From NCBI GenBank assembly GCA_964608765.1, contig CAZSPD010000002.1, positions 50,205-114,204 on the forward strand: DNA of 64,000 bases, read 5' to 3'. Each line of letters begins with the position of its first letter. The stretch's first letter is position 1. The translations under genes were made by a program, and so were the position numbers. Below the pieces are notes generated by a model that was not told the origin of the DNA, did not search any database, and saw only the letters and a program-made list of their open reading frames with translations. Below are positions 7,208-26,423 of this stretch, in pieces. The stretch is from Candidatus Woesearchaeota archaeon. GTDB lineage: Archaea > Nanobdellota > Nanobdellia > Pacearchaeales > GW2011-AR1.

Positions 7208-7645
7208 TTATAACTCCTTCATTTCTTGTTTAAAATCATTTATATCCTGAAATTGTCTATATACAGATGCAAATCTCACATAAGCTATTTCATCTATTTT
7301 TCTTAGTTTCTTCATAACAAGTTCTCCAATAACAGAACTTTTTACTTCTTTTTTACCTGATTTTCTTATTTGTTCATCTATTTTACTTATCATTTTATTG
7401 ACTATTTCTTGAGAGATTGGGCGTTTTTCAAGAGCCTTTTCAATTCCTGCTTCAAGTTTTTTAATATCAAATTTTTCTCTTCTTCCATCTTTTTTAATTA
7501 CATACAAATCAGTTCTTTCAACCCTTTCGTATGTTGTAAACCTTTTTTTGCATTTTAAGCATTCTCTCCTTCTCCTTATTCCGTCAGGAGAACTTCTTTT
7601 ATCTGTAACTTTTGAATTTTTATGACCGCAATAAGGACAATCCAT
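7208..7645 (-). CDS. nrdR: Transcriptional repressor NrdR (zinc ribbon + ATP-cone)
   Basis: MDCPYCGH...RRRRECLKCKKRFTTYE zinc ribbon followed by an ATP-cone (VIKKDGRREKFDIKKL). It ends 21 nt upstream of nrdJ on the same strand. Confidence 0.9.
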   Translation of the reverse strand: MDCPYCGHKNSKVTDKRSSPDGIRRRRECLKCKKRFTTYERVERTDLYVIKKDGRREKFDIKKLEAGIEKALEKRPISQEIVNKMISKIDEQIRKSGKKEVKSSVIGELVMKKLRKIDEIAYVRFASVYRQFQDINDFKQEMKEL

Positions 7646-7676
7646 TTTTACCTCTTATATTCTATTTATAAGTTAT

Positions 7677-7723
7677 ATACAATATGTTGTATATTTAACC
7701 TATTTAATTACTATAGGTTGTAT
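7677..7723. promoter_or_regulatory. Two NrdR-box-like 16-mers spaced 31 bp apart, upstream of nrdR-nrdJ
   Basis: ATACAATATGTTGTAT (7677-7692) has 6-bp palindromic arms. TTACTATAGGTTGTAT (7708-7723) matches it at 13 of 16 positions. Both resemble the bacterial NrdR-box consensus acaCwAtATaTwGtgt, and tandem boxes at about 31-32 bp are the known arrangement. Confidence 0.5.
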
Positions 7724-7920
7724 TTATTGAAATATTCAGAAAATACCCATATTTAAACTTTAGTAATCACTAGTGTATTCAACACACCCATACAACTTTT
7801 TAGAGTGAAAATAAAATTTTCAATAGACACCCCTCTTAATCCTTTTGTTAATACACTCGATAATTGTACACTTACTAACATTTTTAAAGTTTATAATCAT
7901 AAATATTTTAGGAGGTGGCG

Positions 7921-8184
7921 ATGGACTATTTAAATGAACTTACAGCTCAATTGGGGATTTCTCTCTGGTTAATCATTATTATGATTATCTGGTCAAGTGT
8001 TTGGAAATTTTTAGCACTTTGGAAATCAGCAAGAAAGGGGCATGTTGCATGGTTTGTTGTATTTGCTTTAGTTAATACAATTGGAATTTTAGAGATATTG
8101 TATATTTACATTTTCTCTGACAAAACATGTTGTAAAGCAAATGTTAAGAAAAAACCTGTTAAACAGATAAAAAAGAAAAAATAA
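7921..8184 (+). CDS. Small two-TM membrane protein
   Basis: AGGAGG lies 5 nt upstream of the ATG at 7921 (the ORF track starts at GTG 7915). Hydrophobic WSSVWKFLALWKSARKGHVAWFVVFALVNTIGILEILYI. Confidence 0.5.
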   Translation: MDYLNELTAQLGISLWLIIIMIIWSSVWKFLALWKSARKGHVAWFVVFALVNTIGILEILYIYIFSDKTCCKANVKKKPVKQIKKKK

Positions 8185-8200
8185 ATTATTTTATTTTTAT

Positions 8201-8443
8201 TTAATTTCCTTTTGATTTTATTGCAGTTGTAGAACCAAGAAGAAATCCTACAACTAGTGAAGCAATTATTACATTAGAAAGCTTTGAAAAAAATGTTTTT
8301 AGCTTAGTCACATCTAAGTTTCCTAACATTAATTTTACTTCTTCTGTGCTACCAGTCAATTTAACATAAACTAAAAAGTACATAGATAAAAATAGAATAA
8401 GTGAAAAAATAAATCCCCAGATTAACCAATTGAATTTTCCCAT
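8201..8443 (-). CDS. Small membrane protein (tandem paralog of 8452-8679)
   Basis: 80 aa with two hydrophobic segments. The N-terminus WLIWGFIFSLILFLSMYFLVY resembles its neighbour. Confidence 0.4.
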   Translation of the reverse strand: MGKFNWLIWGFIFSLILFLSMYFLVYVKLTGSTEEVKLMLGNLDVTKLKTFFSKLSNVIIASLVVGFLLGSTTAIKSKGN

Positions 8444-8451
8444 TTTGTTTT

Positions 8452-8679
8452 TTATTTTTTATTTTGTTTAGTTTCTTTTTTAAATAAAAACTCTTTTATT
8501 ATAACAAATGTAAACCCACATACAAGGGATACAATTATTATTGATTTAATTGTAAACATTTCTAAATACCCTTCCCATAAATTAGGAAGAATTCTAAAAT
8601 ACACAAGAAGATATACTATTGAAAATATTATTGCAGAATAAATTATTGATCTTACTAACCATAAACCTCTCTTTTCCAT
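8452..8679 (-). CDS. Small membrane protein (tandem paralog of 8201-8443)
   Basis: 75 aa. The N-terminus WLVRSIIYSAIIFSIVYLLVY resembles its neighbour. Confidence 0.4.
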   Translation of the reverse strand: MEKRGLWLVRSIIYSAIIFSIVYLLVYFRILPNLWEGYLEMFTIKSIIIVSLVCGFTFVIIKEFLFKKETKQNKK

Positions 8680-8789
8680 TTAATACTTAAAGAAAGTATA
8701 TTTTTAAATTTAATCAATAGGATTCATGAGTAGTTATTAGGCAAATATAAAGATATTAAAAGTTTGAATTCAAACAAATTAAAGTAAAA

Positions 8790-9224
8790 ATGGATTTAAC
8801 ATTAATAATATTTATTTTAGTACTTTTGATAAGCATAGTTATATCTTATTTAGTTGGCAAAAAAACAGGGGCTTTCCAAAGAGATAAGCATTGGGAAAAA
8901 GAATTACCTGTTCAAAGAAAACAAGCAATAACTCAGTCAAGGGCAGTTCTTGGTGGACAATTTTCAGAACAGCTTTCACCTTATCTTCCTAATTTTAATT
9001 ACTCTCCAACAGAATGCAAATTTATTGGAAAACCAATTGATTTTATTTGTTTCAAAGGAATGGATGAAAAAGAGATAAAAGAAGTTATTTTTGTTGAGGT
9101 AAAAAGCACTAAAAAATCAAGTCTCACTCCCCAAGAAAAAAATCTTAGAGAAGCAATAGAAAAGAAACAAGTAAAATGGGAAAGGTATGTTGTCCCAGAA
9201 GAAGTTACTAAAAAAAGAGAGTAA
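8790..9224 (+). CDS. Membrane-anchored PD-(D/E)xK endonuclease related to archaeal Holliday junction resolvase
   Basis: N-terminal TM helix, then PIDFICF...VIFVEVKSTKKSSLTPQEKNLREAI, a D...(E)VK pattern as in the Hjc-related endonuclease family. Confidence 0.45.
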   Translation: MDLTLIIFILVLLISIVISYLVGKKTGAFQRDKHWEKELPVQRKQAITQSRAVLGGQFSEQLSPYLPNFNYSPTECKFIGKPIDFICFKGMDEKEIKEVIFVEVKSTKKSSLTPQEKNLREAIEKKQVKWERYVVPEEVTKKRE

Positions 9225-10910: not shown

Positions 10911-12437
10911 ATGGAAAATAATTCCAACATTGGTCTTGAGAGAAAACTTTGGGCAGCTGCAGATAAACTTAGGAGTAATATGGATGCTGCAGAGTATAAG
11001 CATGTTGTTTTAGGACTTATTTTCTTGAAATATATATCTGATTCTTTTGAAGATGCATATAAAGAGATTAAGGCTGATCCTGATGGAGATCCTGAAGATA
11101 TTGATGAGTATAAAGCGAGGAATGTCTTTTGGGTTCCGCTTGAGAGTAGGTGGGGTTATTTACAGAAGAATGCAAGGCAACCAACAATTGGCAAACTTGT
11201 GGATAGTGCTATGGATGCTATTGAGCGTGAAAATACTTCATTGAAAGGAGTTTTACCAAAAGATTATGCAAGAGAAGCATTGGATAAAACCCGTTTGGGA
11301 GAGTTGATTGATTTAATTGGAACTATTGGTCTTGGAGATAAGGCAAGCAAGGGCAAAGATATGTTGGGTCAAGTTTATGAGTATTTTCTTGGACAATTTG
11401 CAGATGCTGAAGGAAAAAAGGGAGGTCAATTTTACACTCCAAAATGCATTGTTAAACTTCTTGTTGAAATGATTGAGCCATTCAGAGGAAGAATTTTTGA
11501 CCCTTGCTGCGGTAGCGGGGGAATGTTTGTTCAATCAGAGAAGTTTGTTGAAGAGCATTCAGGAAGAAAAGGAGACATTTATGTTTATGGTCAAGAGTCA
11601 AATTCTACTACTTGGAAACTTTGTAAGATGAATATGGCGATTAGAGGCATAGATTCAAATATCCAATGGGGAGATAGTTTGCATGATAACAAGCACAAGG
11701 ACTTGAAAGTTGATTATATTCTCGCGAATCCTCCTTTTAATGATTCTGACTGGAATGGGCATTTGTTGAAAGATGATGTTCGTTGGAAATATGGAGTTCC
11801 TCCTACAGGGAATGCGAACTTTGCGTGGGTTCAGCATTTTATTCATCACCTCTCTCATAGGGGAATTGCAGGGTTTGTTTTAGCTAATGGCTCTATGTCC
11901 TCAAATACTGGAGGTGAAGGAGAAATAAGAAAAAGAATAATTGAAGATGATTTAGTTGATTGTATGGTTGCTTTGCCTTCTCAGTTGTTTTACAATACAA
12001 TGATTCCTGCATGTTTGTGGTTTCTAACTAGAGACAAGACCAATCATGGCAAGAGAAAAAGAACAAATGAGATTTTGTTTATTGATGCAAGGAACATGGG
12101 GACAATGATTGACAGAAGGCACAGAGAATTAACTGATGAAGATATAAAGAAAATAACTGACACTTATCATGCCTGGAGAGGAGAAGAAAAATCAGGAAAG
12201 TATGAAGATGTTGCGGGTTTTTGCAAATCAGCAACTCTTGAAGATGTTGAAAAGAATAATTTTATCCTCACACCCGGAAGATATGTTGGTGTTGCAGAGG
12301 AAGAAGACGATGGCGAGCCTTTTGAGGAGAAGATGAAGAGATTGACTGAAGAATTGAAGGGTCAGTTTGAAGAAGGGAAGAGGTTGGAGAAGGAGATAAA
12401 ATTAAATTTGGAGAAGATTGGTTGGAGTATTAAATAA
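10911..12437 (+). CDS. hsdM: Type I restriction-modification system, methyltransferase subunit
   Basis: N-terminal HsdM domain ([32 protein letters not shown]), AdoMet motif [10 protein letters not shown] and catalytic motif LANPPFN. Confidence 0.95.
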
Positions 12438-12470: not shown

Positions 12471-13793
12471 ATGCTTACAAAAATTGATATAGAAAAATTG
12501 ATTGTAAATCCTGAAAATTATAGGTTTGATCCAGTGGATACTCAAAATCAGGCAATTGAGTTAATGCTTGAAGAGAAAAATGAAGAAATTTTTAATTTAG
12601 CAAAACACATAATTGAAAATGGATTAGATAAAGCAAAAAATCTGAGAGTAGTGGAAATAAAAAAAGATTTATTTAAAATTCTTGAAGGAAATAGAAGAAT
12701 AACTGCGATAAAATGTTTATTGGACCCATCAGTAATTAAAAGTGATTCTTTAAAAAATAAATTTAAAAAATTAATTGACGAATCAAAAAAAGAAAATAAG
12801 GTGATTCCAACCAAGATTAGTTGTTTTATTTATAAAAGCGAAGAAGAAGCAGCTAAATGGATTAAACTGGATCATACTGGAAAAAATAAGGGAGTAGGCC
12901 TTGATGAATGGGGCCCTGCAGAAAAAGAAAGATTTGCTTATAAGTTTGAGGGAAAGATAAGTCCTGCTATGCAAATTGTAAATTTATTTGAGGTAGAAAC
13001 AAACTCTAAGATTGACAAAAATAAATTAAAAATTTCTACAATAAATCGTATACTTTCTAATTCCGAGTCTAGATCCTATTTAGGAGTAGACATAAAAAAT
13101 GGAAATTTAGTATTAACGTCAAATAAAAAAGAGGTTTTGGGAAGGATAGACAAACTATTTAATAAAATGTTGACAGAAGATATTACAGTTTCTGAAGTTT
13201 ATCATACAAGTGATTCTATTAAATTTATGAAAAATTTATTTGGAGAAAAACCTGTTGCATTAAAGAAAAAAACAGTAGTCCAATCCAAAATTTTGCAGGA
13301 TAAAAAAATTAAGAAAGTAAATATTTTGCCTAAAACAAATGGTAGAGAAGTTTTAATTCCTTATTCGTGTGGATTGATTATTCATGAAAAAAAAATTAAT
13401 AATATTTACCATGAATTAAGAAATCTTTCAATTTCAGAATATACAAATGCTGTAGCTGTTCTTTTTAGGGTATTTTTAGAGACTAGTTTAGATTGTTATG
13501 CTGAAAAATACGGGATGCAATTTAACAACCTTACTAAACTATCTGGTAAAATAACCAAAGTTGCCGACGAATTAGAAAAGGGAAAGACTGCCACAAATAA
13601 TCAATTAAAAAACATTAGAAATGTTGCTACAAAAACAAATTCTATTTTATCAATAGGAAATTTTCATGAATATGTTCATTCCTTTAAAAGTCAACCAATA
13701 CCCAGCGATTTAGTTTATTCATGGGATAATTTACAGGAATTCTTTGAAATTATCTGGGGAGAAATCTCAAGGAAAGAAGGTAAAACAAAATGA
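12471..13793 (+). CDS. ParB/Srx-fold N-terminal domain protein with an unassigned helical C-terminal half
   Basis: LIVNPENYRFDP and ILEGNRRITAIKCL resemble the ParB N-terminal box and the GERRxRA-type arginine patch. 440 aa. Its stop overlaps the next gene's start (ATGA). Confidence 0.55.
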   Translation: MLTKIDIEKLIVNPENYRFDPVDTQNQAIELMLEEKNEEIFNLAKHIIENGLDKAKNLRVVEIKKDLFKILEGNRRITAIKCLLDPSVIKSDSLKNKFKKLIDESKKENKVIPTKISCFIYKSEEEAAKWIKLDHTGKNKGVGLDEWGPAEKERFAYKFEGKISPAMQIVNLFEVETNSKIDKNKLKISTINRILSNSESRSYLGVDIKNGNLVLTSNKKEVLGRIDKLFNKMLTEDITVSEVYHTSDSIKFMKNLFGEKPVALKKKTVVQSKILQDKKIKKVNILPKTNGREVLIPYSCGLIIHEKKINNIYHELRNLSISEYTNAVAVLFRVFLETSLDCYAEKYGMQFNNLTKLSGKITKVADELEKGKTATNNQLKNIRNVATKTNSILSIGNFHEYVHSFKSQPIPSDLVYSWDNLQEFFEIIWGEISRKEGKTK

Positions 13794-14638
13794 CATTTTA
13801 TTCACCATTAAGATATCCAGGCGGGAAAGGAAAATTAGTTAATTATTTTAAAAAAGTATTCAAAGAAAATTCTCTTGATAAGGGGATTTATGTTGAGCCT
13901 TACGTTGGAGGAGCATCAATTGCACTTTCACTTTTAATTGAAGGCTATGCATCAAAGATAATTATTAACGACAAAGATAAATCAATTTATGCTTTTTGGT
14001 ATTCTGTTTTAAATTATCCAAATAAATTATGCAACTTGATAAAAAAAACTCCAGTCAATTTAAAAATAAGAGAAGAACAAAAAAAGATTCAAGAAAACAA
14101 AGAAAAAGAGAATTTACTGACAGTAGGTTTTTCCACTTTTTTCCTTAATAGAACAAATCATTCGGGAATAATCAAGGCAGGGGCAATAGGGGGATTGAGC
14201 CAAGAGGGGAAATGGAAGATTGATGCAAGATATAACAAAGAAGAATTGATTAAAAGAATAAGGCAAATCTCTAAATACAAAGATAAAATTGAACTTTATA
14301 ATGAAGATGCAGTTGATTTAATAAAAAAACTCAAAAAAAAATTACCTTCAAAAACCTTAATCTATCTTGATCCTCCATATTATAACAAAGGAAAAGAACT
14401 CTACATGAATTATTATTCTGATGAAGACCATAAAAAAATAGCTAAAGAAATAAACAAGACAAAAAAACAAAAGTGGGTTATCACGTACGATAATGTTGAA
14501 TTTATTAAAAAATTATACGAAAATAATAAACAAACAAAATATGATTTATATTATAGTGCAGGAAAACCGAAACAAGGAAAAGAATTAATTATCTTCTCTG
14601 ATAATGTTAAAGAACTAAACCCGATGATGGTGAAATAA
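13790..14638 (+). CDS. Dam-family (D12 class) N6-adenine DNA methyltransferase
   Basis: LRYPGGKGKL, EPYVGGASIAL (AdoMet motif) and LDPPYY (catalytic DPPY). Confidence 0.85.
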   Translation: MTFYSPLRYPGGKGKLVNYFKKVFKENSLDKGIYVEPYVGGASIALSLLIEGYASKIIINDKDKSIYAFWYSVLNYPNKLCNLIKKTPVNLKIREEQKKIQENKEKENLLTVGFSTFFLNRTNHSGIIKAGAIGGLSQEGKWKIDARYNKEELIKRIRQISKYKDKIELYNEDAVDLIKKLKKKLPSKTLIYLDPPYYNKGKELYMNYYSDEDHKKIAKEINKTKKQKWVITYDNVEFIKKLYENNKQTKYDLYYSAGKPKQGKELIIFSDNVKELNPMMVK

Positions 14639-14639
14639 A

Positions 14640-15266
14640 ATGAATAAGAGAGGACAATCAGTAGATGTAACTGGAATAATTGGAGTAATTCTTTCTTTGT
14701 TTTTTGTGATTATATTTATTTCTGCAATAATTCCGGTGTTTAATTCTATTAATGGAAATGATGATTTACAAAAAGAGATAAATAATAAAAATAATCAAAT
14801 ATCTAATTTAGAACTTGAAAATTCTAAATTACAAAATTCCATTGGAGAATTAAATTTAAGAATAGTTGAGAAAGATAATCTAATTTCAAATTTAAGTTGG
14901 CAGTTTAGTGAAAAGGAAAAAAATTTTACGGAATCATTTAATCAAATTATCACGGAAAAAGAAAAATCAATTTCTAATTTAGGTGAACAATTAATTGAAA
15001 AAGATAAACAAATTGAAAATTTAACAAACGAGCTTGAAAATTACAGAGAAAAAGATTATCTGCCATCAATAAATAATAATTATTACAATATCTTAAATTA
15101 TATGGGAAGTATTGAAAACAAATTTTATACAATTAACCTTGCGGTTGGATTAATCTCTCTAACTCTTACAGGAATTGTAATAAAGTTATTTGGTTTGGAT
15201 GTTAAAATTAAATTTCTATTTAGGAAACTTAAAAGGAAAAAGGAGAAAAAAGAAAATGTTTCCTAA
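14640..15266 (+). CDS. Coiled-coil protein with N- and C-terminal TM helices
   Basis: TM helix at residues about 10-33, a heptad-rich N/E/K/L middle with the recurring ISNL motif, a second TM near the C-terminus and a basic tail. Confidence 0.5.
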   Translation: MNKRGQSVDVTGIIGVILSLFFVIIFISAIIPVFNSINGNDDLQKEINNKNNQISNLELENSKLQNSIGELNLRIVEKDNLISNLSWQFSEKEKNFTESFNQIITEKEKSISNLGEQLIEKDKQIENLTNELENYREKDYLPSINNNYYNILNYMGSIENKFYTINLAVGLISLTLTGIVIKLFGLDVKIKFLFRKLKRKKEKKENVS

Positions 15267-15441
15267 AAAAAGGAGAGTTAGTTTTTGGGCAACTAAAAAA
15301 ATTCCAAAAAAAGCTACTGTAAGCTTCAGAGATAGTTCTGGAAGAAGGGTTTCATTTACAGCTACAAAAAGGGTCCCGAAAAAAGTCAAAGTTAATTTTT
15401 GGGCTAGTAAATCCGGAAAGCCAATAAGGAGGAGGAGATGA
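15256..15441 (+). CDS. Small, highly basic tandem-repeat peptide (possible PIN partner)
   Basis: AGGAG lies 10 nt upstream of the ATG at 15256. Contains RRVSFWATKKIPKKATVSF and RRVSFTATKRVPKKVKVNF repeats. Its stop overlaps the PIN gene start. The longer 15190 start in the ORF track lies inside the previous gene. Confidence 0.4.
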   Translation: MFPKKRRVSFWATKKIPKKATVSFRDSSGRRVSFTATKRVPKKVKVNFWASKSGKPIRRRR

Positions 15442-15971
15442 TGAAAATTTACATAGACTCAAATGTCTTTGTATCTTATGTTAAGAGAGATGAGGGTCAG
15501 AACCATAAAGATTCTAAATCTTTTTTAGAATTTATATTGAGAAACAATTTTGAAGATGTTACTTTCTTTACATCAAGGTTTACAGAAGTGGAAGTAGGTT
15601 CTGCAGTTTATAGAAGAAGTAAACAACAAAATCAAGCCAGAGCAACATTACATCGTCTAACTCGTGCATGGGCAAATAAAATTTTTCCCTTGCCAGAGAA
15701 TCCATCGGAAAAAATTAAGATAGATAATTTAATAGTAAAATTGGTTGAAACTGCTCTAAATTATGGAACAACTTTTGGAGACACCATTCATGCAAACGAT
15801 GTAGAGAGCTACGATGTAGATTATTTAGTTACATGGAATCTTAGAGATTTTAAAAAACTAGAAAAGAAGATAAAGAAGGTTAAGGTCCTAACTCCTACAG
15901 GTATGCGGGAAATATTAGAGATGGGAAAAAGAAATAAACTCAAACAATCTGCAATAGGAAAAATAAAATGA
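15438..15971 (+). CDS. PIN-domain nuclease (VapC-like)
   Basis: IYIDSNVF (first Asp), TEVE, GDTIHANDVES and LVTWNLRDF follow the PIN acidic-residue order. Confidence 0.65.
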   Translation: MMKIYIDSNVFVSYVKRDEGQNHKDSKSFLEFILRNNFEDVTFFTSRFTEVEVGSAVYRRSKQQNQARATLHRLTRAWANKIFPLPENPSEKIKIDNLIVKLVETALNYGTTFGDTIHANDVESYDVDYLVTWNLRDFKKLEKKIKKVKVLTPTGMREILEMGKRNKLKQSAIGKIK

Positions 15972-16891
15972 ACCAAAAAAACAAAAAGCCAACTACAGCC
16001 AATTTGAAAAAGATACTTAAGAACCCTGATAAGATGACTGATTTTGTAAGAAAAAATCTACTTGGAAATAATCAATTTATCGACCTACTAACTAATTTTG
16101 ATAATTATTTTAATGAGTTAAAAAAACAAGACCATATTTGGAAAGAGAATTTAGTAGAAAATGAAGAGCTTGAAAAAAAGTATGAAGAGTTAATTAACAA
16201 AATTGATAGCATAGATAAAATCAACCCGCCAAATATAACGCCTCAGGAAGCGACTTTTGAAATGAATAAATTTTCAGAGAATAATATGTTTATCTATATG
16301 GAACTAAGTAAATTTATTGGTAAAAAGGAAGAAGATCCCATACCTGGAGACATTTATATTTTGGCCAATCTTTATCGGACAGTCTTAGAATTATATAAAA
16401 AAAATATGAAAGTTTGGCTTCCGAGTTTTGGCCAGTCTTTAAATGTTGGAAAAGGAACGATGAAGAAGTTAAAAAAAGGTAAAATTGAAATTGGAACATT
16501 CTTAGAACTGATTAAACAATTTGATAAGAATTTTCAAACAGATTATTATCCGACTTTCGTAAAATATATAGATTCTGATTTAAGAAATAAAATTGCTCAC
16601 GAACAATATTATATCGGAGAGATTTTGGTTAATATGCCTGATGGCTCCCAGGTAAGTAGCATTGGCTTTATAGGAGATGATAAAAAAATTTATTCTGCTG
16701 CAGATTTAATCAGTAAAATAAAAAGAGCTTACATATTTTTACTATTAACTATATTTAAGAATGGGTTTGGAAGATACGCATCATTATCGTCATCACAAAA
16801 CGATCTTGAAGAAATAAAGAAGAATCCTAAATTATTTGAGCAGGTTTTAAAAAAACAAATAGGAAATATGGGGAGCAAATATGCAAAATAA
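15968..16891 (+). CDS. Hypothetical protein with a HEPN-like Rx4H motif
   Basis: 307 aa. The C-terminal half contains DLRNKIAHEQYY (R-N-x3-H as in Abi-type HEPN domains). It has 4-nt and 11-nt overlaps with the flanking genes. Confidence 0.4.
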   Translation: MNQKNKKPTTANLKKILKNPDKMTDFVRKNLLGNNQFIDLLTNFDNYFNELKKQDHIWKENLVENEELEKKYEELINKIDSIDKINPPNITPQEATFEMNKFSENNMFIYMELSKFIGKKEEDPIPGDIYILANLYRTVLELYKKNMKVWLPSFGQSLNVGKGTMKKLKKGKIEIGTFLELIKQFDKNFQTDYYPTFVKYIDSDLRNKIAHEQYYIGEILVNMPDGSQVSSIGFIGDDKKIYSAADLISKIKRAYIFLLLTIFKNGFGRYASLSSSQNDLEEIKKNPKLFEQVLKKQIGNMGSKYAK

Positions 16892-17912
16892 ACCTAAGAA
16901 AACTGAAATGGGGAACTCAGAGAGAACTCTAATTATCTTCGATACAAATAATCTACAAAATACTCTTGATGGAGAATCGGATTATTCTACTTTTGACCCA
17001 AAAGGAGATATAAAGAAATTAAGAGATTTTATATCAAAAAACAATTTACAAGATAATATAATAATAGGATTGTCTGAAATTGTTTTAAAAGAGTATTGCA
17101 ACCATAGAAAAACTGATTTTATTAAAAAATTAGATCAATTTAAACAATTGCATTCAAAAATGAAAAATCTTAGTTGTATAAATTTTGACAACATTACATT
17201 TCCCCCAGACAATTTTGATTATGGAAATTATATTTATGACAAAATTAGAGAAATTGTTTCAAACGAAAATAGTATATTCATTTTAATTCCTATCGAAGAA
17301 GAAAAATGTGGCGAGATATTTAAGAAAATTTTATACAAATCAATAAATCATATTAAACCTTTTGATGAACGAGGTGATAAAGGTTTTAAAGATGCAATAA
17401 TTTTTGAATCATTAATAAATTTTCAGATAAAGAATAACTACGCAAAAGTTATTTTATTTAGTAAGGATTTAGGATTTTCTGAAGAATTAAGATGGGAATT
17501 TTCACGATTAACTGGAAAATTTTTAGATATAGAATCAAATTATGAGCTCTTAGAGCAAAATTTAATGGGAGTTTATCATTTAATAGTCAAATATCCGGAA
17601 CTTCTGAATCACTTGAAAACAGATTATTTCAAAGGACAATTAATGGACTATATGTCTGATTTTGAAGGACTCGGAATAAATAATTTTGAGATAATTAACT
17701 GCTGCTCAGGAATTGAAGATTGTAAAAAAGAAGATTTAGAAAAGTTTAGACAGGAAGAGTATTTAGAAGAGGTAATGGATAATTTTAAAATAGTTTCCTT
17801 AGAATTTGAAAATGATGGAAAAGAATATATTGCTGAAGTTTTATTTGATTTAAGCGTAAATGAGATTATTGGTGGAGGCTATGAAGGGAAACAGGAGGTT
17901 CAAGTAATATGA
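16881..17912 (+). CDS. PIN-like domain protein (DUF4935-like)
   Basis: LIIFDTNNL near the N-terminus and a later ERGDKGFKDAIIFESL resemble the PIN-like DUF4935 pattern. Its stop overlaps the hsdS start. Confidence 0.5.
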   Translation: MQNKPKKTEMGNSERTLIIFDTNNLQNTLDGESDYSTFDPKGDIKKLRDFISKNNLQDNIIIGLSEIVLKEYCNHRKTDFIKKLDQFKQLHSKMKNLSCINFDNITFPPDNFDYGNYIYDKIREIVSNENSIFILIPIEEEKCGEIFKKILYKSINHIKPFDERGDKGFKDAIIFESLINFQIKNNYAKVILFSKDLGFSEELRWEFSRLTGKFLDIESNYELLEQNLMGVYHLIVKYPELLNHLKTDYFKGQLMDYMSDFEGLGINNFEIINCCSGIEDCKKEDLEKFRQEEYLEEVMDNFKIVSLEFENDGKEYIAEVLFDLSVNEIIGGGYEGKQEVQVI

Positions 17913-19087
17913 ATGGGAAAATTAATCCTGACTGGGAAATTGCAAAAATAAAAGATATCGGAAAAGTTATAACTGGAAAAACTCCCCCCACTTCAAATAA
18001 AACTTTCTTCAATGGAAAATATCCTTTTATCAAAATTCCCGATATGAATAATTCTGTCTATTTGTCTTTTTCAGAGAGTTCTTTGTCTGAAGAAGGAGCA
18101 AGTCATATGAAAAATTTAATTCTTCCCCCGGACTCTGTAATGGTTTCTTGTTTGGCAACGATTGGGAAAGTGGGAATTACTACAAAAGAATCTTTTACAA
18201 ATCAACAAATTAATTCAATTATTCCAAATAAAAAAATCATTTCTCCCTTGTGGATTTATTACTTTTTTAAGAATAATAAAAATTATTTAGAAAGTCTTGG
18301 TGGCGGAGGTTCAGTTTATATTAACATCTCTAAAACAAAATTTGAAAATGCAGTTATTCCGCTTCCCCCTCTCCCCGAACAACTTGCCATCGCCTCCATC
18401 CTCTCCTCCCTTGACGCAAAAATAGAACTCAACAATAAAATGAACAAAACCCTTGAAGCCATTGGGCAGGCATTGTTTAAGAAATGGTTTGTGGAAAATC
18501 CTGAGAAAGATAATTGGAAAGAGGGGAAATTAGGTGATATTGTGAAATTAAAAATGGGAATTTCTCCAAAGGGGGAAAGTTATAATGAAACAGAAACCGG
18601 TGTTCCATTACTTAATGGGGCGGCAGATTTTTCTGGGAAACTAATAATCCCAAAAAAGTTTACATCCGCTCCAATTAAAATGTGTGATGTCGGAGATTTA
18701 ATTTTTTGTATTAGGGCAACAATCGGAAATATTACTTTTGCAGATAAAAAATATTGTCTAGGGCGAGGTGTTGCCGCATTAGAAATACAAAAGGGATATC
18801 GAGAATTTGTTTATTACCTATTAAATTCTTCATTAGAAGAAATGGTATCTGGGGCATATGGGAGTGTAATAAAAGGGCTATCAAAAATAGATATAGAAAA
18901 TCTAAAAATTACAATTCCGGACAAAGAAACAATATTAAATTTTAATAAAATTTGTTTTCCTATTTTTGAAAAACAATTCTCACTAGATAAACAAAATCAA
19001 ACTCTCTCTCAAATTCGGGATGCGTTGTTGCCTAAGTTGATGAGTGGAGAAGTGAGGGTTTCATTATGTGAGGAGAATATAAAATGA
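17909..19087 (+). CDS. hsdS: Type I restriction-modification system, specificity subunit
   Basis: Two target-recognition halves separated by the conserved central region LPPLPEQLAIASILSSLDAKIELNNKMNKTLEAIGQALFKKWF. C-terminal conserved region LSQIRDALLPKLMSGEVRV. Confidence 0.9.
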   Translation: MNGKINPDWEIAKIKDIGKVITGKTPPTSNKTFFNGKYPFIKIPDMNNSVYLSFSESSLSEEGASHMKNLILPPDSVMVSCLATIGKVGITTKESFTNQQINSIIPNKKIISPLWIYYFFKNNKNYLESLGGGGSVYINISKTKFENAVIPLPPLPEQLAIASILSSLDAKIELNNKMNKTLEAIGQALFKKWFVENPEKDNWKEGKLGDIVKLKMGISPKGESYNETETGVPLLNGAADFSGKLIIPKKFTSAPIKMCDVGDLIFCIRATIGNITFADKKYCLGRGVAALEIQKGYREFVYYLLNSSLEEMVSGAYGSVIKGLSKIDIENLKITIPDKETILNFNKICFPIFEKQFSLDKQNQTLSQIRDALLPKLMSGEVRVSLCEENIK

Positions 19088-19386
19088 GTTTATTTGGCAA
19101 TTTATTTAATTTTAATATAAAAAATTTAATTATTCAAGGAAGAGTGGATATTGCCTACGATAAAATATATAATATGGCAGAAAAAATAACGGTCCATGAG
19201 TTAAAATTGCATCAATCCAATTTAGTTCATAAATATGGAACCAAAGCAATACAAGGAAAAAATTATAATCTTTTGGAAGAGGTGAGTAAATTGGAAAATT
19301 GGAAATTTAAAAGAATTCAATATCACATAAACGAAATGAAAGAATTATTAAAATTAAGAGAAAAATTAAAGGAGAATAAAGGATAA
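19084..19386 (+). CDS. Hypothetical helical protein
   Basis: 100 aa, ATGA overlap with the hsdS stop. No motif. Confidence 0.4.
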   Translation: MSLFGNLFNFNIKNLIIQGRVDIAYDKIYNMAEKITVHELKLHQSNLVHKYGTKAIQGKNYNLLEEVSKLENWKFKRIQYHINEMKELLKLREKLKENKG

Positions 19387-19832: not shown

Positions 19833-21212
19833 ATGGACATAGACCAAGTCTTAAGAGTCATAGAATCTGGAGAATCTCAAGAAGTTGAGTTTAAAGAATC
19901 ATTTCATAGTTCTCAAGATTTTTCAAAAATAATGTGTGGATTTGCAAATACTTATGGAGGAGTTATTCTGATAGGGGTTAATAATAAAAAAGAGGTTGTA
20001 GGAGTAAAAGATAATTTAGACAGCCTTCAACAAAAAATATCTTCTTCAGCTCAAGCAGTTTCTCCTCCGATATTTCCATCAATAGAAACTCATAAAATTA
20101 AAGGAGCGGACGTAATATCTATAGTTATACAGCAAGCAATAGACAACACATTTCATAGTTTTCAAGGAGTTATCTATGTAAGGATTGGCAGTACTTTAAG
20201 AAAGATAGAAGGAAATCAAATAGTTGATTTCTTGCGTGGGAAACAAATTCTATGTTTTGATGAAACTATAAGTAACGCTAAACTTACAGATTTGGACCTT
20301 AATAAAATTAAAGAATATCTAAATATAAGGAAACAATCAGATTATTTTAAATCTCATTCCAGTGAGGATTTTTTGTTAAGCATGAAATTGGCTTCAAAAA
20401 ACGGAGAGTTTAAAGTAAAAAACTCTGCCTTACTGTTTTTTGCTAAAGACCCAATCTTCTTTAATCCCCAAATAGAAATTAAAGCAGTTAGATTTGACGG
20501 CACAGAACCAGTTAAAATAATTTCCCATGAATTAATCCAATCAAATTTGACCGAATCAATTGAAAAGGCTTTATCTTTCGTAAAGAGTAATATTTCAAAG
20601 AGTATTAATATTAAGTCTGAGGCTAAACGAGAAGAGAAATATCAATATCCTTTGGATGTCATCAGAGAAGCAATAGTCAATGCAGCGGCTCACAGAGATT
20701 ATTTTAGTAAAGATTCTATTCAAATTTATATCTTTTCAGATAGAATAGAAATGACTAATCCTGGGTCTTTACCTAAGGATTTGCCTAAGGAGTTATTTGG
20801 CACCCTTTCTGTTCAAAGAAATCCTCTGACCTATAGGATTTTAAGAGATTATGGATTTGTTGAAGGCTTGGGATCTGGAGTTCCTAGAATGATTAATAGT
20901 ATGAGGGAACACGGCCTTTCTGATCCAGAATTTGGAATATATGAACATTTTTTCAGAACAATTTTGCGAAGCACACAAAGTGAACTAAAGCCCATTAAAA
21001 AATATCAAGACTTAAATGAAAGACAAATAAAAACCTTAGAATTTTTGAAGAAGAATAGATCCATAAAAACAAAAGCATATACAAAATTAAATAGAGTCTC
21101 TTTAGGTACTGCTAGGCTAGACATTAATGAGATGCTTAAATTTGGTTATATAAAAAAAGTAGGTGCTTTCAGGGGAGCCTATTATATACTAAATGAGGAT
21201 AATAAAAAATGA
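19833..21212 (+). CDS. AlbA_2 (Schlafen-like divergent AAA) / HATPase_c_4 / C-terminal wHTH protein
   Basis: [10 protein letters not shown] and [13 protein letters not shown] (AlbA_2), [13 protein letters not shown] and [11 protein letters not shown] (HATPase_c_4-like), and a C-terminal wHTH-like [21 protein letters not shown]. Its stop overlaps the hsdR start. Confidence 0.7.
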
Positions 21213-24200
21213 AAATAACAGAAAACGAAGTTGAAGGATTAGCACTGGATATTTTTAGAGAAATGGATTATAAAGTCCTTAATGGACTTGAAATATCTCC
21301 TGGAGGAAGTAAACAAGAAAGAAACGATTTCAGAGAAGTTATCTTAAAAGAAAGATTATTGAATTCTATTGGAAGAATAAACCCCAACATGCCTAAAGAC
21401 GCATTGGAAGATGCCATGAAAAAAGTTTCAAGAGTTTCCTCTCAAAACCAAGTTCTTGACAATCAACAATTTCACAAATTATTAACAGAAGGGGTTCCAG
21501 TATCTTTTAGAAAAGGGCAATCAACAAAACATGAGATTATAAATTTAGTTGATTTTGAAAATCCAAGCAAAAACGAATTTCTTGCAGTTAATCAATTTAC
21601 TATAATTGAAGGTAAGTGTAACCGAAGGCCAGACATAATTCTTTTTGTAAATGGCTTGCCTTTGGCAGTAATAGAGCTAAAGAATCTTGCAGAAGAAAAA
21701 GCAACAATTGATGATGCATTCACACAACTTCAAAATTACAAGATGCAGATTCCTTCCTTGTTTAGATTTAATGAAATTCTTATGATAAGTGACGGAGCAC
21801 TTGCACAGGCAGGGACAATTTCTTCAACAAGAGAGTGGTTTGTTGAATGGAAAACAATTGATGGTAAAATGCCAAAGAATAAGCTTAGTATGGATACATT
21901 ACTAAGAGGAATGTTTAACAAAAAAACCTTTTTAGATTTAATCAAAAATTTTATTGTTTTTGAAAAAGATGAAGAAACAATAAAGAAAATTTCTACTTAT
22001 GCCCAGTATAATGCTGTAAATAAAGCAATTGATTCAACAATAAAAGCAGTTAAAGGAAATAAAAAGGCAGGAGTTGTATGGCACACTCAGGGATCTGGAA
22101 AATCCCTTTCAATGGTTTTCTATTCTGGAAAACTCGCATTGGAAAAAGAGCTTGAAAATCCAACAATTGTTGTTTTAACAGATAGGAATGATTTAGATGA
22201 TCAATTATTTAAAACATTTTCAAGATGTTCTGAGCTTTTAAGACAAGAGCCAAAAAATGCAGGATCAAGAAAACAAATTAAAGAGCTTTTGAAGAAATCC
22301 TCTGGAGGCATTATTTTTACTACAATTCAAAAATTTTCTCCAGAAAAAGATGAAAAATTTCCTGAGCTTTCAGATAGAAGAAATATAATTGTTATTGCAG
22401 ATGAAGCGCACAGAACCCAATACGGTTTTTCAGCGCATGTTGTTCAAACGAAGGATGATGGAGCCCTCATAAGATATGGTTTTGCTAAATATTTAAGAGA
22501 TGCCTTGCCAAATGCTTCATTTATCGGTTTTACTGGGACACCTATTGAAAAACAGGACAGGTCAACTCCTGCTGTCTTTGGAAATTATGTTGATAAGTAT
22601 GATATACAACAAGCAGTTGAAGATAAAGCGACTGTTAAGCTTTTATATGAAAGTCGACTGGCTAAACTTGGGATAAAACCGGAAGAAAGAAGAAAAATTG
22701 ATCCCTTTATTGAAGAATTAACAGAAGATCAGGAAGTAAAGAATAAACTAAAGAGCAAATGGGCTAAACTTGAAAAGGTTGTAGGTAGTCCCGAGAGAAT
22801 AAGACGAGTGGCAAAGGACATTATTGAGCATTTTGAAGAGAGGTTGAAAGTCCTTGATGGAAAAGCCATGATTGTTTGCATGAGTAGAAGAATTTGTGTT
22901 GATTTGTACAATGAGATAATTTCTTTAAGACCAGAGTGGCACAACAAAGACGACAAAGAGGGAATAATAAAAGTAATCATGACTGGTTCTTCTTCTGATC
23001 CAACAGAATGGCAAGAACATATAAGAAACAAAAAGAGGAGAGAAAAAATTGGAGATATGTTTAAATCTCCTAAAGAAGAATTGAGAATCGTAATAGTTAG
23101 AGATATGTGGCTGACTGGTTTTGATGCTCCCTCTGTCCATACAATGTATATTGACAAACCAATGAAATCTCATGGACTAATGCAGACAATTGCAAGAGCA
23201 AACAGGAAATACAAAGACAAGGATGCGGGATTGATAGTTGACTATTTTGGAATTGGAAAAGAACTAAAAGATGCAGTCATGCAATATACTGCTAGTGGTG
23301 GAAAAGGCAAGCCTATTTTTGAACAAAGTGAAGCAGTCAAGAAAATGTTGGAAAAATATGAGGTTGTCAGAGATATGTTTTATGGATTTAATTATAAGAA
23401 ATTCTTTACCTTAAATCCAAAAGAACGACTTTCAGTAATTCCAAATGCTGTGGAGCATATTTTGAAGGGAAAAGAAAAATTAAAAGAAAGATTTATCAGA
23501 GAAACAAGCGCTTTAATTAGGGCATTTGCTTTGTCTGTTCCAGATGAAAAAGCAATGCAAATAAAAGAAGAAGTAGGATTTTTCCAAGCAATAAAATCAA
23601 CTATAGTCAAGAATACCATAATATCTTCAAAGGGCTCCATAGAATTTGATACAGCAATTAAGCAAATAATCTCCAAAGCAATCATCTCTGACAGAATAAT
23701 TGATATTTTTGAAGCTGCAGGTGTCCAAAAACCAGACATCTCAATCCTATCAGATAAATTCTTAAGGGAAGTCAAAGAAATTCCTCAAAAGAATCTTGCT
23801 TTTGAAGCACTGAAAAAACTAATCAATGACGACATAAAGGTAAGGTTTAAGAAAAATATTGTTAAAGAAAAATCATTCATGGAAATGTTAGATAAAATAA
23901 TAACAAGATATACAAACAAAAGCATTGAGGCGGCTGAAGCAATAGAAGAATTAATCGGATTAGCTAAGAAGTTTAGAGAAGAACAAAAAGAAGGAAAAGA
24001 TCTTGGCCTAACTGAAGATGAAAAAGCTTTTTATGATGCTCTTGCAGACTGTAAAGAGGCAATAGATGTTTTGGGTGATGAAAAATTAAGAATAATTGCC
24101 CTTGAACTAGTTAATATGATAAGAAATAATGTAAAAGTGGATTGGACAATTAGAGAAAATGTTCAGTCAGATTTAAAATTAAAAGTTAAAAGGATTTTAA

Positions 24201-24310
24201 AGATTCACGGGTACCCTCCTATTGGGAGAGAAAAAGCAATAGATCTTGTTTTAAAACAAGCTGGTGTTGTGGCAGATGATTGGGCAGAAAAGAACCTTTA
24301 TTTTGTTTAA
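21209..24310 (+). CDS. hsdR: Type I restriction-modification system, restriction (helicase-nuclease) subunit
   Basis: 1033 aa. N-terminal PD-(D/E)xK region ([20 protein letters not shown]), Walker [15 protein letters not shown] box [11 protein letters not shown], and a helicase C-terminal domain ([15 protein letters not shown]). Confidence 0.95.
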
Positions 24311-24975
24311 ATTTTTTCATCCTCAACCCAGCTCCAATAACTCTCTTTTCCAAGAATCACATGGTCAAGGACTTTTATGCCTATGAGCTCTCCGACTTCA
24401 ATTAACTTTCCTGTTATATCCAAATCTTCTTTGCTTGGATTTGGATTCCCTGAAGGATGATTATGAACAATAATCATTTTTGATGCTGAATGTTTTATTG
24501 CAGGCTTGAATACTTCTCTTGGGTGCAAAATTGCTGCATCAAGAACTCCCTTTGAAATAAGCTCCTCTTTTAAAATATTGTTCTGGCTGTTCAACAAAAC
24601 AACATAAAAATTCTCCTGTTTTTCATCTTTAAGCCTTTCACAAAACAGCTCAAAAACATCTTTGGCATTAGATATTTTCTTTACTGGTTTTTTTGACTGG
24701 GAATATCTCTTCCCAAGCTCTGCAATTGCCAGGATTTGCATTGCTTTGCTTGGACCTATCCCTTTTATTTTTTCAAGTTCTTTTAAAGAACAATCAAAAA
24801 GGTTTTCCAACCCATTTTCTTTTATCAGCCTGTTAGACATCTCAACAACATTCTCTCCTCTTGTTCCTGTTCTCAGGATAATAGCAAATAATTCAGCATC
24901 ACTTAATGCTTCTTTTCCTTGTTTTAAGAATCTCTCCCTAGGTTTTGAAGAATTTGGGAGATCTTTTATTTTCAT
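24307..24975 (-). CDS. radC: RadC-like JAB-domain protein
   Basis: HhH-like N-terminus ([14 protein letters not shown]) and JAMM motif [22 protein letters not shown]. Confidence 0.9.
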
Positions 24976-25488: not shown

Positions 25489-26022
25489 ATGACACGTAAG
25501 AATATCAAGCAGAATATTATAGAATATTTTTTTCTCAATCCGACAGCCAAGCTTAGGGTGAGGGAAATAGAAAGAACTCTAAAACTTCCTCTGCCTTCTG
25601 TAATAAGATATTGCAAAGAGCTTGAAAAAGAGGGCATCCTCTCAAATATTAAAACAGGGAGCATTTCGCTTTACACTGCAAATAAAATGGGTGAAAAATA
25701 CCTGCTTGAAAAAAAGCTCTTTAACATAAAGCGGTTATACGAATCAGGAATCATTGAATATTTAAAAATAGAAATTAGCAATCCTGCAATAATCTTATTT
25801 GGTTCTTTTGCCAGAGGGGAAGACACAGAAGGAAGCGATATTGATTTATACATAGAAACTCCCTCAAATAAAGAATTGGATTTAGGAAAATTTGAAAAAA
25901 TCCTAAAAAGAAAAATACAGGCATTAAAGCATAAAAGCCTTCATGATATACAGAACCTTCATTTGTCAAATAATATCATAAATGGCGTTCTATTAAATGG
26001 ATTCGTGGAGGTTTTCAAATAA
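25489..26022 (+). CDS. wHTH-fused minimal nucleotidyltransferase (MNT)
   Basis: N-terminal wHTH-like LRVREIERTLKLPLPSVIRYCKELEKEGIL, then the NTase motif LFGSFARGEDTEGSDIDLY. Confidence 0.8.
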   Translation: MTRKNIKQNIIEYFFLNPTAKLRVREIERTLKLPLPSVIRYCKELEKEGILSNIKTGSISLYTANKMGEKYLLEKKLFNIKRLYESGIIEYLKIEISNPAIILFGSFARGEDTEGSDIDLYIETPSNKELDLGKFEKILKRKIQALKHKSLHDIQNLHLSNNIINGVLLNGFVEVFK

Positions 26023-26423
26023 TGCGGGAATCAAACTGGGAAGAGTGCTTATTATGCAATTCTGCTAAAAAAGTCTCTCCGGATCCAAATCGCGCAAAAT
26101 CTCTAATTGAAACATCAAAAGAAAGGCTAAGTTTGATAAAAGAAATAACTGAAAAAAACTGCAACTTTGTATTTGAAGATTATTACACTTCCCTGATTGA
26201 GCTTCTCCAGGCATTAGCTTTCAAAAAAGGATTTAATATATTGAACCATGTTTGTCTTGGATATTATTTAAGAGATTTTATGAAAAGGGAAGAATTATAC
26301 CGGACATTTGATGATTTAAGATATAAAAGAAATTCCCTTACTTATTACGGAACTAAAATGGATTTTGAAATTGCAAAGCAAGCAATTCAAAATTGCAAAA
26401 AATTAATAGAAGAGTTAAAATGA
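26022..26423 (+). CDS. HEPN-domain protein (partner of the MNT)
   Basis: 133 aa, all-helical. DDLRYKRNSLTYYG resembles the RxxRNxxxY/H HEPN motif. Its start overlaps the MNT stop. Confidence 0.65.
   Translation: MRESNWEECLLCNSAKKVSPDPNRAKSLIETSKERLSLIKEITEKNCNFVFEDYYTSLIELLQALAFKKGFNILNHVCLGYYLRDFMKREELYRTFDDLRYKRNSLTYYGTKMDFEIAKQAIQNCKKLIEELK

Follow-up and report, generated by a model that had tools for sequence, protein, structure and literature searches.

Three probably separate nuclease-type cassettes stacked in an archaeal type I restriction-modification operon

Do four overlapping genes that encode several predicted nucleases form a single defense machine, or are they independent cargo that has accumulated in one operon? 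This question is raised by a block of four genes (15256-17912) in a 64,000-nucleotide (nt) stretch of DNA from a Candidatus Woesearchaeota archaeon (contig CAZSPD010000002.1; hereafter the window). The block encodes a very basic repeat peptide, a PIN protein, a third open reading frame (ORF3) with a HEPN-type motif, and a second PIN-like protein of the PIN_12 (DUF4935) family. The window is chromosomal DNA of a low-GC (~29%) archaeon: it encodes an archaeal-type glutamyl-tRNA synthetase (gltX_arch) and the diphthamide synthase Dph2; genes for ribonucleotide reductase, ThyA, and histidyl-tRNA synthetase are also present. The block sits in the gap between hsdM and hsdS of a type I restriction-modification (R-M) operon, whose hsdM, hsdS, and hsdR all lie on one strand (Table 1). 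A first-pass annotation had presented the four genes as a candidate multi-RNase abortive-infection or toxin-antitoxin module. Our analysis favors a different view, namely that the block probably consists of three separate nuclease-type cargo cassettes (peptide-PIN, ORF3, and PIN_12) stacked in an archaeal type I R-M operon, and not of one four-gene machine.

The four genes are indeed chained by overlaps that run into hsdS, at the coordinates first proposed. The peptide and PIN genes overlap by an ATGA, as do the PIN and ORF3 genes, while ORF3 and PIN_12 share 11 nt and PIN_12 and hsdS share 4 nt. An alternative ATG for PIN_12 at 16908 would abolish the 11-nt overlap; the start at 16881 has a Shine-Dalgarno-like site (GGGGAG). 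The chain of overlaps extends well past the block: it spans 13790 to 19084 and resumes at 21209, including the PD-lambda-5-like genes A and B, hsdS, a 100-aa ORF, and the junction between the AlbA_2 gene and hsdR, and the majority of overlapping junctions in the window fall within this R-M operon island. Since the overlaps reach all neighboring cargo genes, they mark a packed operon and do not delimit a four-gene unit.

Comparison with related loci (given L numbers here) shows that the cassettes are separable. In the orthologous operon (L001-L003), the order is AbiEi/Eii, hsdM, a transmembrane protein, peptide, PIN, PIN_12, hsdS, a 428-aa gene, hsdR, and radC; identity to the window is 72% for hsdM, 66% for PIN_12, 68% for both hsdR and radC, 47% for the peptide, and 36% for hsdS, and ORF3, the PD-lambda-5 genes, and the AlbA_2 gene are missing. 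Two further loci retain PIN-PIN_12-hsdS (L004) and PIN-PIN_12 (L010), with no sequence available upstream of PIN in either. PIN_12 occurs without peptide or PIN behind hsdM and a 145-aa coiled-coil protein in L007, and behind a different gene, again without peptide-PIN, in L009. Conversely, the peptide-PIN pair lacks PIN_12 in L011 (hsdR, four small genes, peptide, PIN, hsdS, a transmembrane protein, hsdM) and in L012, where it lies between a type IIG/PglX-like gene and brxL. The hsdM of L011 is only 23% identical to that of the window, and L011 therefore represents an independent type I operon and an independent embedding. ORF3 was looked for in every related locus of the block and is missing from all of them, and profile searches over all fetched loci recovered ORF3 relatives only where expected. 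The quartet was thus found at no other locus, a check that had been set beforehand as refuting, and the claim that it is conserved as one module falls with it.

These patterns also bear on the alternative that a single integrated multi-RNase abortive-infection or toxin-antitoxin (TA) system is built from the peptide, PIN, ORF3, and PIN_12, which would regulate one another and be translated together upstream of hsdS. Such a system would explain why the four genes lie on one strand in overlapping or abutting positions with plausible ribosome-binding sites, why three of the four proteins carry nuclease-type signatures, and why peptide, PIN, and PIN_12 occur together in two lineages (the window and L001-L003) and PIN and PIN_12 in L004 and L010. 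It is hard to reconcile with the absence of ORF3 from all related loci and the presence of its relatives elsewhere, with the occurrence of peptide-PIN and PIN_12 without each other (L011 and L012, L007 and L009, respectively), and with an overlap chain that takes in the unrelated PD-lambda-5, hsdS, and 100-aa genes. We consider an integrated system very unlikely.

Table 1. Features of the R-M operon island in the window and homologues of the basic peptide at other loci.
Feature	Locus	Position	Strand	Evidence or context
hsdM, type I R-M methylase, start of host operon	window	10911..12437	+	72% identical to L002 hsdM
PD-lambda-5 subunit A-like, ParB-like/Abi-type, 440 aa	window	12471..13793	+	PADLOC PD-Lambda-5_A, E=1.5e-117
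PD-lambda-5 subunit B-like, D12-class N6-adenine methyltransferase (Dam-like), 282 aa	window	13790..14638	+	PADLOC PD-Lambda-5_B, E=1.4e-120
208-aa protein with apparent hydrophobic transmembrane-like segments, coiled coil, and basic tail	window	14640..15266	+	coiled-coil-type matches only
Basic repeat peptide with polybasic tail, 61 aa	window	15256..15441	+	conserved archaeal family
VapC-like PIN nuclease (predicted), 177 aa	window	15438..15971	+	coupled to peptide via ATGA
ORF3, orphan, 307 aa	window	15968..16891	+	candidate Csm6-type HEPN RNase
PIN_12/DUF4935 nuclease (predicted), 343 aa	window	16881..17912	+	PF16289, E=4e-14
hsdS, type I specificity subunit	window	17909..19087	+	Pfam Methylase_S, E=1.6e-50
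100-aa ORF, overlaps hsdS by 4 nt	window	19084..19386	+	no significant family match
AlbA_2 (Schlafen-type) + HATPase_c_4 + helix-turn-helix (HTH) protein, 459 aa	window	19833..21212	+	SLFN_AlbA_2 E=2e-24; HATPase_c_4 E=1e-19 (Pfam)
hsdR, type I restriction subunit, end of host operon	window	21209..24310	+	68% identical to L002 hsdR
radC, convergent with hsdR	window	24307-24975	-	68% identical to L002 radC (L002 11686-12360)
Peptide homologue (Pacearchaeota)	L011			67-68% identical to window; type I operon, PIN next (ATGA overlap)
Peptide homologue (Thermoplasmata)	L012			61% identical (71% in the best segment); follows C-terminal part of type IIG/PglX-like gene and precedes PIN and BrxL
Peptide homologue (Bathyarchaeota)	L013	3986-4165		60% identical to window; stands alone
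Peptide homologue (Aenigmarchaeota)	L014	3974-4150		46% identical; overlaps end of type III res gene; without PIN

The first cassette begins with the basic peptide, which had been singled out at first inspection for its high isoelectric point (pI), its two repeat copies, and its dissimilarity to the AbrB, ribbon-helix-helix (RHH), and Phd antitoxin folds. All three points hold. The peptide has a pI of 12.0, with 22 K/R and a single D/E among its 61 residues, and contains a 19-aa repeat in two copies, RRVSFWATKKIPKKATVSF and RRVSFTATKRVPKKVKVNF, with identity at 13 of 19 positions; none of 5000 shuffled sequences reached 13 identities, or indeed more than 9. The internal duplication spans about 19-24 aa, and the DNA that encodes the repeats is only 60% identical, which indicates an old duplication maintained at the protein level. 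Its ATG is preceded at 9 nt by an AGGAG site. A pattern scan with a two-peptide alignment, run on one genome per species (185,579 species), recovered four relatives, one in each of four archaeal phyla, with 46-71% identity (Table 1); over the five other loci, L002 included, identity to the window peptide ranges from 42 to 67%. Between phyla, members are 67-74% identical over a 43-aa core; of the 27-32 residues that agree, 11-21 are written with different codons, so that the protein is under clear purifying selection. In all six members, the register of the two repeats is preserved, as is the polybasic tail (peptides of 55-63 aa; pI 10.5-12, with 19-25 K/R in 52-61 aa). Members of the family matched nothing in Pfam, NCBIfam, PHROGs, and PADLOC (three members) or in the PDB (two profiles), and the peptide was not found in viral contigs, phages, or plasmids. 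The fold is probably all-beta. The distribution of the peptide is sporadic and crosses phyla, which argues for a mobile accessory gene and not a housekeeping one. We also considered a housekeeping chromatin or ribosomal protein and rejected this candidate, given that the 185,579 species genomes yielded only four matches, no two of them in one phylum. Where the peptide stands alone (L013), its neighbors are a UPF0102-like gene, an M48 peptidase gene, and rtcB; the type III res gene that the L014 peptide overlaps at its 3' end encodes 974 aa.

Immediately behind the peptide lies the PIN gene, whose ATG is directly preceded by AGGAGGAGGAG. The window protein falls short of the Pfam PIN threshold (E=0.0019, 19.3 vs 23.6 bits). 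Its homologues pass that threshold (L011, 27.4 bits; L012, 37.9 bits; L002, 42.9 bits), the window PIN is 42% identical to that of L011 (Pacearchaeota), and a profile comparison with hhalign against the PINs of L002, L004, and L010 aligns it over its full length (probability 80%, E=1.4e-5). D7, E52, D115, and the T132-x-N134-x-x-D137-F138 motif are conserved, so that the original assignment as a PIN protein stands, with the acidic residues intact. In PADLOC-DB v2.0.0, the window PIN reached only PDC-S40 (E=0.027), and none of its homologues from L002, L011, and L012 had a match with E<0.001 (best, L012 PIN vs 'cll', E=0.0038); PDB searches with PIN, PIN_12, and the peptide gave no match. PIN follows the peptide immediately in four of the six distinct peptide loci, overlapping it by a 4-nt ATGA in the window, L002, and L011 and by about 35 nt in L012, and the two genes are thus translationally coupled in four independent loci. 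Peptide and PIN together constitute a separable, probably mobile cassette.

The resemblance of this cassette to VapBC is evident in the small upstream gene that overlaps a ~170-aa PIN gene by ATGA, in the conserved acidic residues, and in the mobile, sporadic occurrence of the pair in defense islands. It differs from VapBC in that the peptide matches no known VapB DNA-binding fold (AbrB/SpoVT, RHH/CopG, Phd/YefM, or HTH) and in that the upstream product is a duplicated peptide of pI ~12, better conserved than the toxin and in some loci found by itself. We propose that peptide and PIN may work as a VapBC-like TA or abortive-infection pair, in which the peptide would keep PIN inactive by filling the acidic active site with its polybasic tail, by tethering PIN to nucleic acid, or both. 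Upon infection, host expression would collapse, the peptide would be lost, and the PIN nuclease, presumably acting on RNA, would be freed.

Several observations weigh against this proposal and the separate-cassette reading around it. The related loci compared are few (~10 distinct, several of them short contigs), and sequence comparison is compatible with functional interaction between the stacked cassettes. Neutralization of PIN by the peptide is something we infer. The peptide is better conserved than PIN (67% vs 42% and 61% vs 24%), the reverse of what is believed to be usual in antitoxin-toxin pairs, and it occurs without PIN at two loci (L013 and L014). N134 in the window PIN replaces an Asp found in four related PINs (T-x-D), which could be ordinary variation among VapC proteins or a sign of altered activity.

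The conservation pattern feeds the main rival for the peptide, a role in binding nucleic acid, which would itself be compatible with a role as antitoxin. In its strict form, this rival holds that the peptide is not an antitoxin at all but an autonomous restriction-associated nucleic-acid-binding protein (an accessory, an operon regulator, or an adaptor that delivers a nuclease), with PIN regulated in some other way. The K/R-rich composition of the whole family fits such a role, as do a conservation far above that of PIN, the PIN-less copy in L013, the position of the L014 copy directly behind and overlapping a type III res gene, and the finding that five of the six distinct loci adjoin R-M or BREX genes in a search that used the peptide sequence only. 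It does not readily account for PIN being the next gene in most of these loci, with an ATGA overlap typical of coupled TA pairs in three, or for a polybasic tail that is well suited to an acidic PIN active site; there is precedent in FitA, an arginine of which inserts into the active site of FitB. On balance, we regard the strict form as unlikely and retain the peptide-PIN pair as the preferred reading.

The second cassette, ORF3, had been described as having an Rx4H HEPN-type motif as its sole recognizable feature. It consists of a helical N-terminal half and a C-terminal half with LANLYRT and LRNKIAHE (R206-x4-H211) blocks. By word-indexed search, ORF3 had no homologue but itself. Scanning 1.84e9 representative proteins in full with HMMER yielded three distant relatives (E=2.5e-8 to 1.6e-4), and a renewed search with their alignment added no members; ORF3 was not found in viral contigs. 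The family shares the blocks LANLYRTxxE and D-x-D/G-LRNxIAHE, with the rest about 25-34% identical, and LRNxIAHE, including the arginine and histidine of the motif, is invariant in the three full-length members (ORF3 included). The motif as first noted therefore stands; for the HEPN fold, profile searches gave sub-threshold matches to Csm6-type HEPN models. Residues 162-227 of ORF3 match PADLOC CARF1--CARF_HEPN (E=3.6e-4, 17.7 bits), and the homologous region in the C-terminal half of one relative (P0008) matches Pfam Cas_Csm6_HEPN (E=0.0064, 16.8 vs 23.4 bits). AlphaFold2 models of ORF3 were unusable, with a mean predicted local distance difference test (pLDDT) score of 36.5 from the single sequence and 41.1 from the 4-sequence alignment, although they placed helices around the motif; a Foldseek search with the poor model returned noise (best E 1.5).

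Two readings of ORF3 have to be weighed against each other. ORF3 may be a non-catalytic helical protein (a regulator, a sensor, or a membrane-associated partner) in which R-x4-H is conserved for another reason, consistent with the lack of any match for ORF3 in Pfam, NCBIfam, and PHROG, with PDB searches by family sequence and two family profiles that gave nothing, with the unusable models, with a PADLOC HEPN match in only one of the four members, and with the membrane proteins that precede two of the three relatives. This reading leaves unexplained why LRNxIAHE is the most conserved block in an otherwise divergent family and why two members independently match two Csm6-type HEPN models in the homologous region; RN-x3-H is, moreover, reportedly a common form of the HEPN motif. 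We therefore judge a non-catalytic ORF3 somewhat unlikely and a HEPN-type RNase plausible and fairly likely from the sequence features, even with the missing PDB matches and the single PADLOC match counting against it. We regard ORF3 as a lineage-specific insertion; under the latter reading, a Csm6-type HEPN suicide RNase probably makes up its C-terminal half and would act as a dimer through R206/H211. The likeness to Csm6/Csx1 lies in the R-N-x3-H block within a helical C-terminal region and in the weak profile matches; the differences are that ORF3 has no CARF domain, a predicted helical or coiled N-terminal half, no CRISPR context, and matches below thresholds. The three relatives of ORF3 lie outside R-M loci, and an hhalign comparison of the ORF3 family with the PD-lambda-5 A protein found nothing.

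The third cassette is PIN_12, for which the initial description as a DUF4935-style PIN-like protein is borne out. The PF16289 match scores 53.8 bits (cut-off 32) and covers residues 18-199, equivalent to positions 1-172 of the 172-position model, followed by a C-terminal domain of about 140 aa without a family match. Five homologues agree at D21, E71, D166/D171, and E176 without exception; at the fourth motif, the relatives have T-x-N-x-x-D-F and the window protein S-K-D-L-G-F. The homologues are 55-67% identical and, where flanks exist, always lie in or beside type I R-M genes, and the 4-nt overlap with hsdS recurs in L001-L003 and L004. The identity of PIN_12 to its L002 orthologue is level with that of hsdM and hsdR. 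In this lineage, PIN_12 is thus the stable partner of hsdS, and the position directly in front of it varies. Searches for relatives of PIN_12 found none in genome contigs or viral contigs, one short locus in metagenome contigs, and none in plasmids by tblastn; neither PIN_12 nor the peptide matched any model in PADLOC-DB v2.0.0. Alignments of the short PIN with PIN_12 by hhalign were not significant, and we therefore do not claim the two PINs as paralogous partners.

We propose that PIN_12 may be a back-up, suicidal nuclease that rides with the Hsd complex and is possibly guarded by it, in the manner of PrrC with EcoprrI. Missing a candidate antitoxin of its own and co-evolving with the hsd genes, PIN_12 may be restrained by the Hsd complex, on the analogy of PrrC and EcoprrI: in both cases, a latent nuclease gene is embedded in, and inherited with, a type I R-M locus. 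The two proteins themselves differ, PrrC combining an ABC-ATPase with an anticodon-nuclease domain and PIN_12 a PIN fold with a C-terminal domain, without similarity between them. None of the four block proteins had an ATPase or PrrC match in Pfam, NCBIfam, or PADLOC, so that the analogy is functional only, and we infer purely from it that Hsd proteins might mask PIN_12.

The tight linkage of PIN_12 to hsdS and its co-evolution with hsdM and hsdR would also suit an alternative in which PIN and/or PIN_12 cut DNA as accessory type I restriction nucleases and are not RNA-targeting suicide effectors; Matelska et al. have raised PINs as possible restriction modules (PMC5499597). A complete hsdR with nuclease/helicase architecture is, however, present here and in the relatives (HSDR_N/ResIII/T1RH-like_C in L002). 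In addition, to our knowledge, the characterized PINs of the VapC group are RNases. We thus hold DNA cleavage by these proteins to be quite improbable and prefer the reading of PIN_12 as an RNA-directed back-up effector.

Additional cargo is present in and beside the operon. The PD-lambda-5-like genes A and B are adjacent, overlap by 4 nt, and directly follow hsdM (the L002 hsdM carries Pfam HsdM_N/N6_Mtase); the B-like protein also matches Pfam MethyltransfD12 (E=6e-21). PD-lambda-5 was originally defined from E. coli prophages, and the pair is complete here in an archaeal chromosome. Behind it, the gene for the 208-aa protein overlaps the peptide gene by 11 nt, and a protein of like architecture without sequence similarity occupies the same position in L002 (3863-4258). 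Small transmembrane or coiled-coil proteins thus lie directly upstream of peptide-PIN in the window and in L002, and small membrane proteins also precede ORF3 relatives in L005 (7559-8020, 20-nt overlap) and L008 (3-191), with no sequence similarity among the four. The membrane protein upstream of ORF3-like genes may be a real partner. As a conserved third part of peptide-PIN, we rejected it, since it is missing upstream in L011 and L012 and the proteins are dissimilar. Further downstream, the gene for the 459-aa AlbA_2 protein runs 4 nt into the start of hsdR. This protein also matches PADLOC pAgo-associated models (E=2e-24), and its gene is not in the orthologous L002, where the 428-aa gene separates hsdS and hsdR.

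At the far end of the operon, hsdR and the convergent radC share 4 nt at the hsdR end. The window and L002 agree in this overlap and radC is conserved between them, from which we conclude that radC travels with the R-M operon. Right after radC (25489-26423) lies a pair formed by an MNT protein (HTH + NTP_transf_2, 177 aa) and a HEPN-like protein of 133 aa (PADLOC PDC-M05B, E=5e-7), which carries the defense island past the R-M operon. Upstream of the operon (8790-9224), a 144-aa protein combines a hydrophobic N-terminal segment with an archaeal Holliday-junction-resolvase-related endonuclease domain (PF10107, E=6e-35). Two irregularities concern the related contigs. In L001 (a 159-kb JGI contig), gene calling splits hsdM into two overlapping genes of 106 aa and 411 aa (7479-8979); the near-identical L002 has a single 527-aa hsdM, and the split reflects either a frameshift or a sequencing error in L001. 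In L010, a public metagenome contig, positions 1-125 at the 5' end include a stretch resembling an Illumina adapter (…GATCGGAAGAGCACACGTCTGAACTCCAGTCAC in reverse complement) that is joined to the end of a PIN gene, an assembly or trimming artifact in the source data.

How do these cassettes relate to known systems? Nuclease back-up effectors embedded in R-M and BREX loci have already been described. PIN toxins coupled to type I R-M systems, sometimes without an antitoxin and in poorly conserved arrangements, have been reported, as have hsdM+hsdS+PIN operons without a restriction enzyme (PMC5499597). A guilt-by-embedding approach identified PIN, HEPN, NYN, and RelE RNase defenses inside Hma, BREX, DISARM, and type I R-M loci (HEC-03 PIN, HEC-08 HEPN, and HEC-09 NYN, besides PDCs) and validated PIN-associated, HEPN, and NYN effectors (Payne et al., bioRxiv 10.1101/2024.01.29.577857). 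According to a 2026 survey of BREX, endoRNases of the HEPN, PIN, and Schlafen types serve within BREX loci as back-up suicidal effectors (PMC12839542), and a V. cholerae type I R-M operon harbors TgvAB, an embedded system that has been tested (PMC11411939). The window resembles such R-M-, BREX-, and Hma-embedded genes in carrying PIN, HEPN-like, and Schlafen/AlbA_2 cargo between core genes on the same strand, and in that the cargo differs between orthologous operons. It differs from them in its archaeal host, in the number of cargo units in one operon (at least four or five), and in that the peptide, PIN, ORF3 (beyond the weak CARF_HEPN match), and PIN_12 have no PADLOC v2.0.0 model, PDCs included. 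PIN_12 has the architecture known for DUF4935 (PF16289), an N-terminal PIN-like domain of ~200 aa and a C-terminal alpha/beta region in a protein of about 340-350 aa. DUF4935 proteins were counted as 310 bacterial and 2 archaeal and are described as mostly monocistronic (Matelska et al. 2017, PMC5499597), whereas the window PIN_12 is archaeal and overlaps hsdS inside an operon. What is new is the family of basic peptides, the fact that it is paired with PIN, the orphan family around ORF3, the linkage of PIN_12 with hsdS in an archaeon, and the degree of stacking.

Tentatively, and short of an even expectation, the peptide may represent a new archaea-wide family of small nucleic-acid-binding proteins recruited specifically to restriction-type defense operons (type I, type III, and BREX), mostly as a new partner of PIN nucleases (an antitoxin or an RNA- or DNA-targeting adaptor), and ORF3 a new and very rare HEPN abortive-infection family; together, these would be uncatalogued archaeal defense modules. 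Archaeal immunity, especially that of DPANN archaea, is poorly charted: in roughly a third of archaeal genomes, a recent survey detected nothing beyond CRISPR and R-M (PMC12988326), and a single type I operon here carries at least four or five cargo units. The peptide-PIN pair is a concrete new candidate, recognized neither by PADLOC v2 nor by domain databases, and three further lineages have it in R-M or BREX operons. Should the peptide be a new inhibitor or adaptor of PIN, the known repertoire of VapC regulation would widen; if it is a restriction-associated DNA-binding factor, it would be an unrecognized accessory of archaeal R-M. Finally, the linkage of PIN_12 with hsdS provides a tractable case in which to study whether Hsd complexes guard embedded nucleases in the manner of PrrC.

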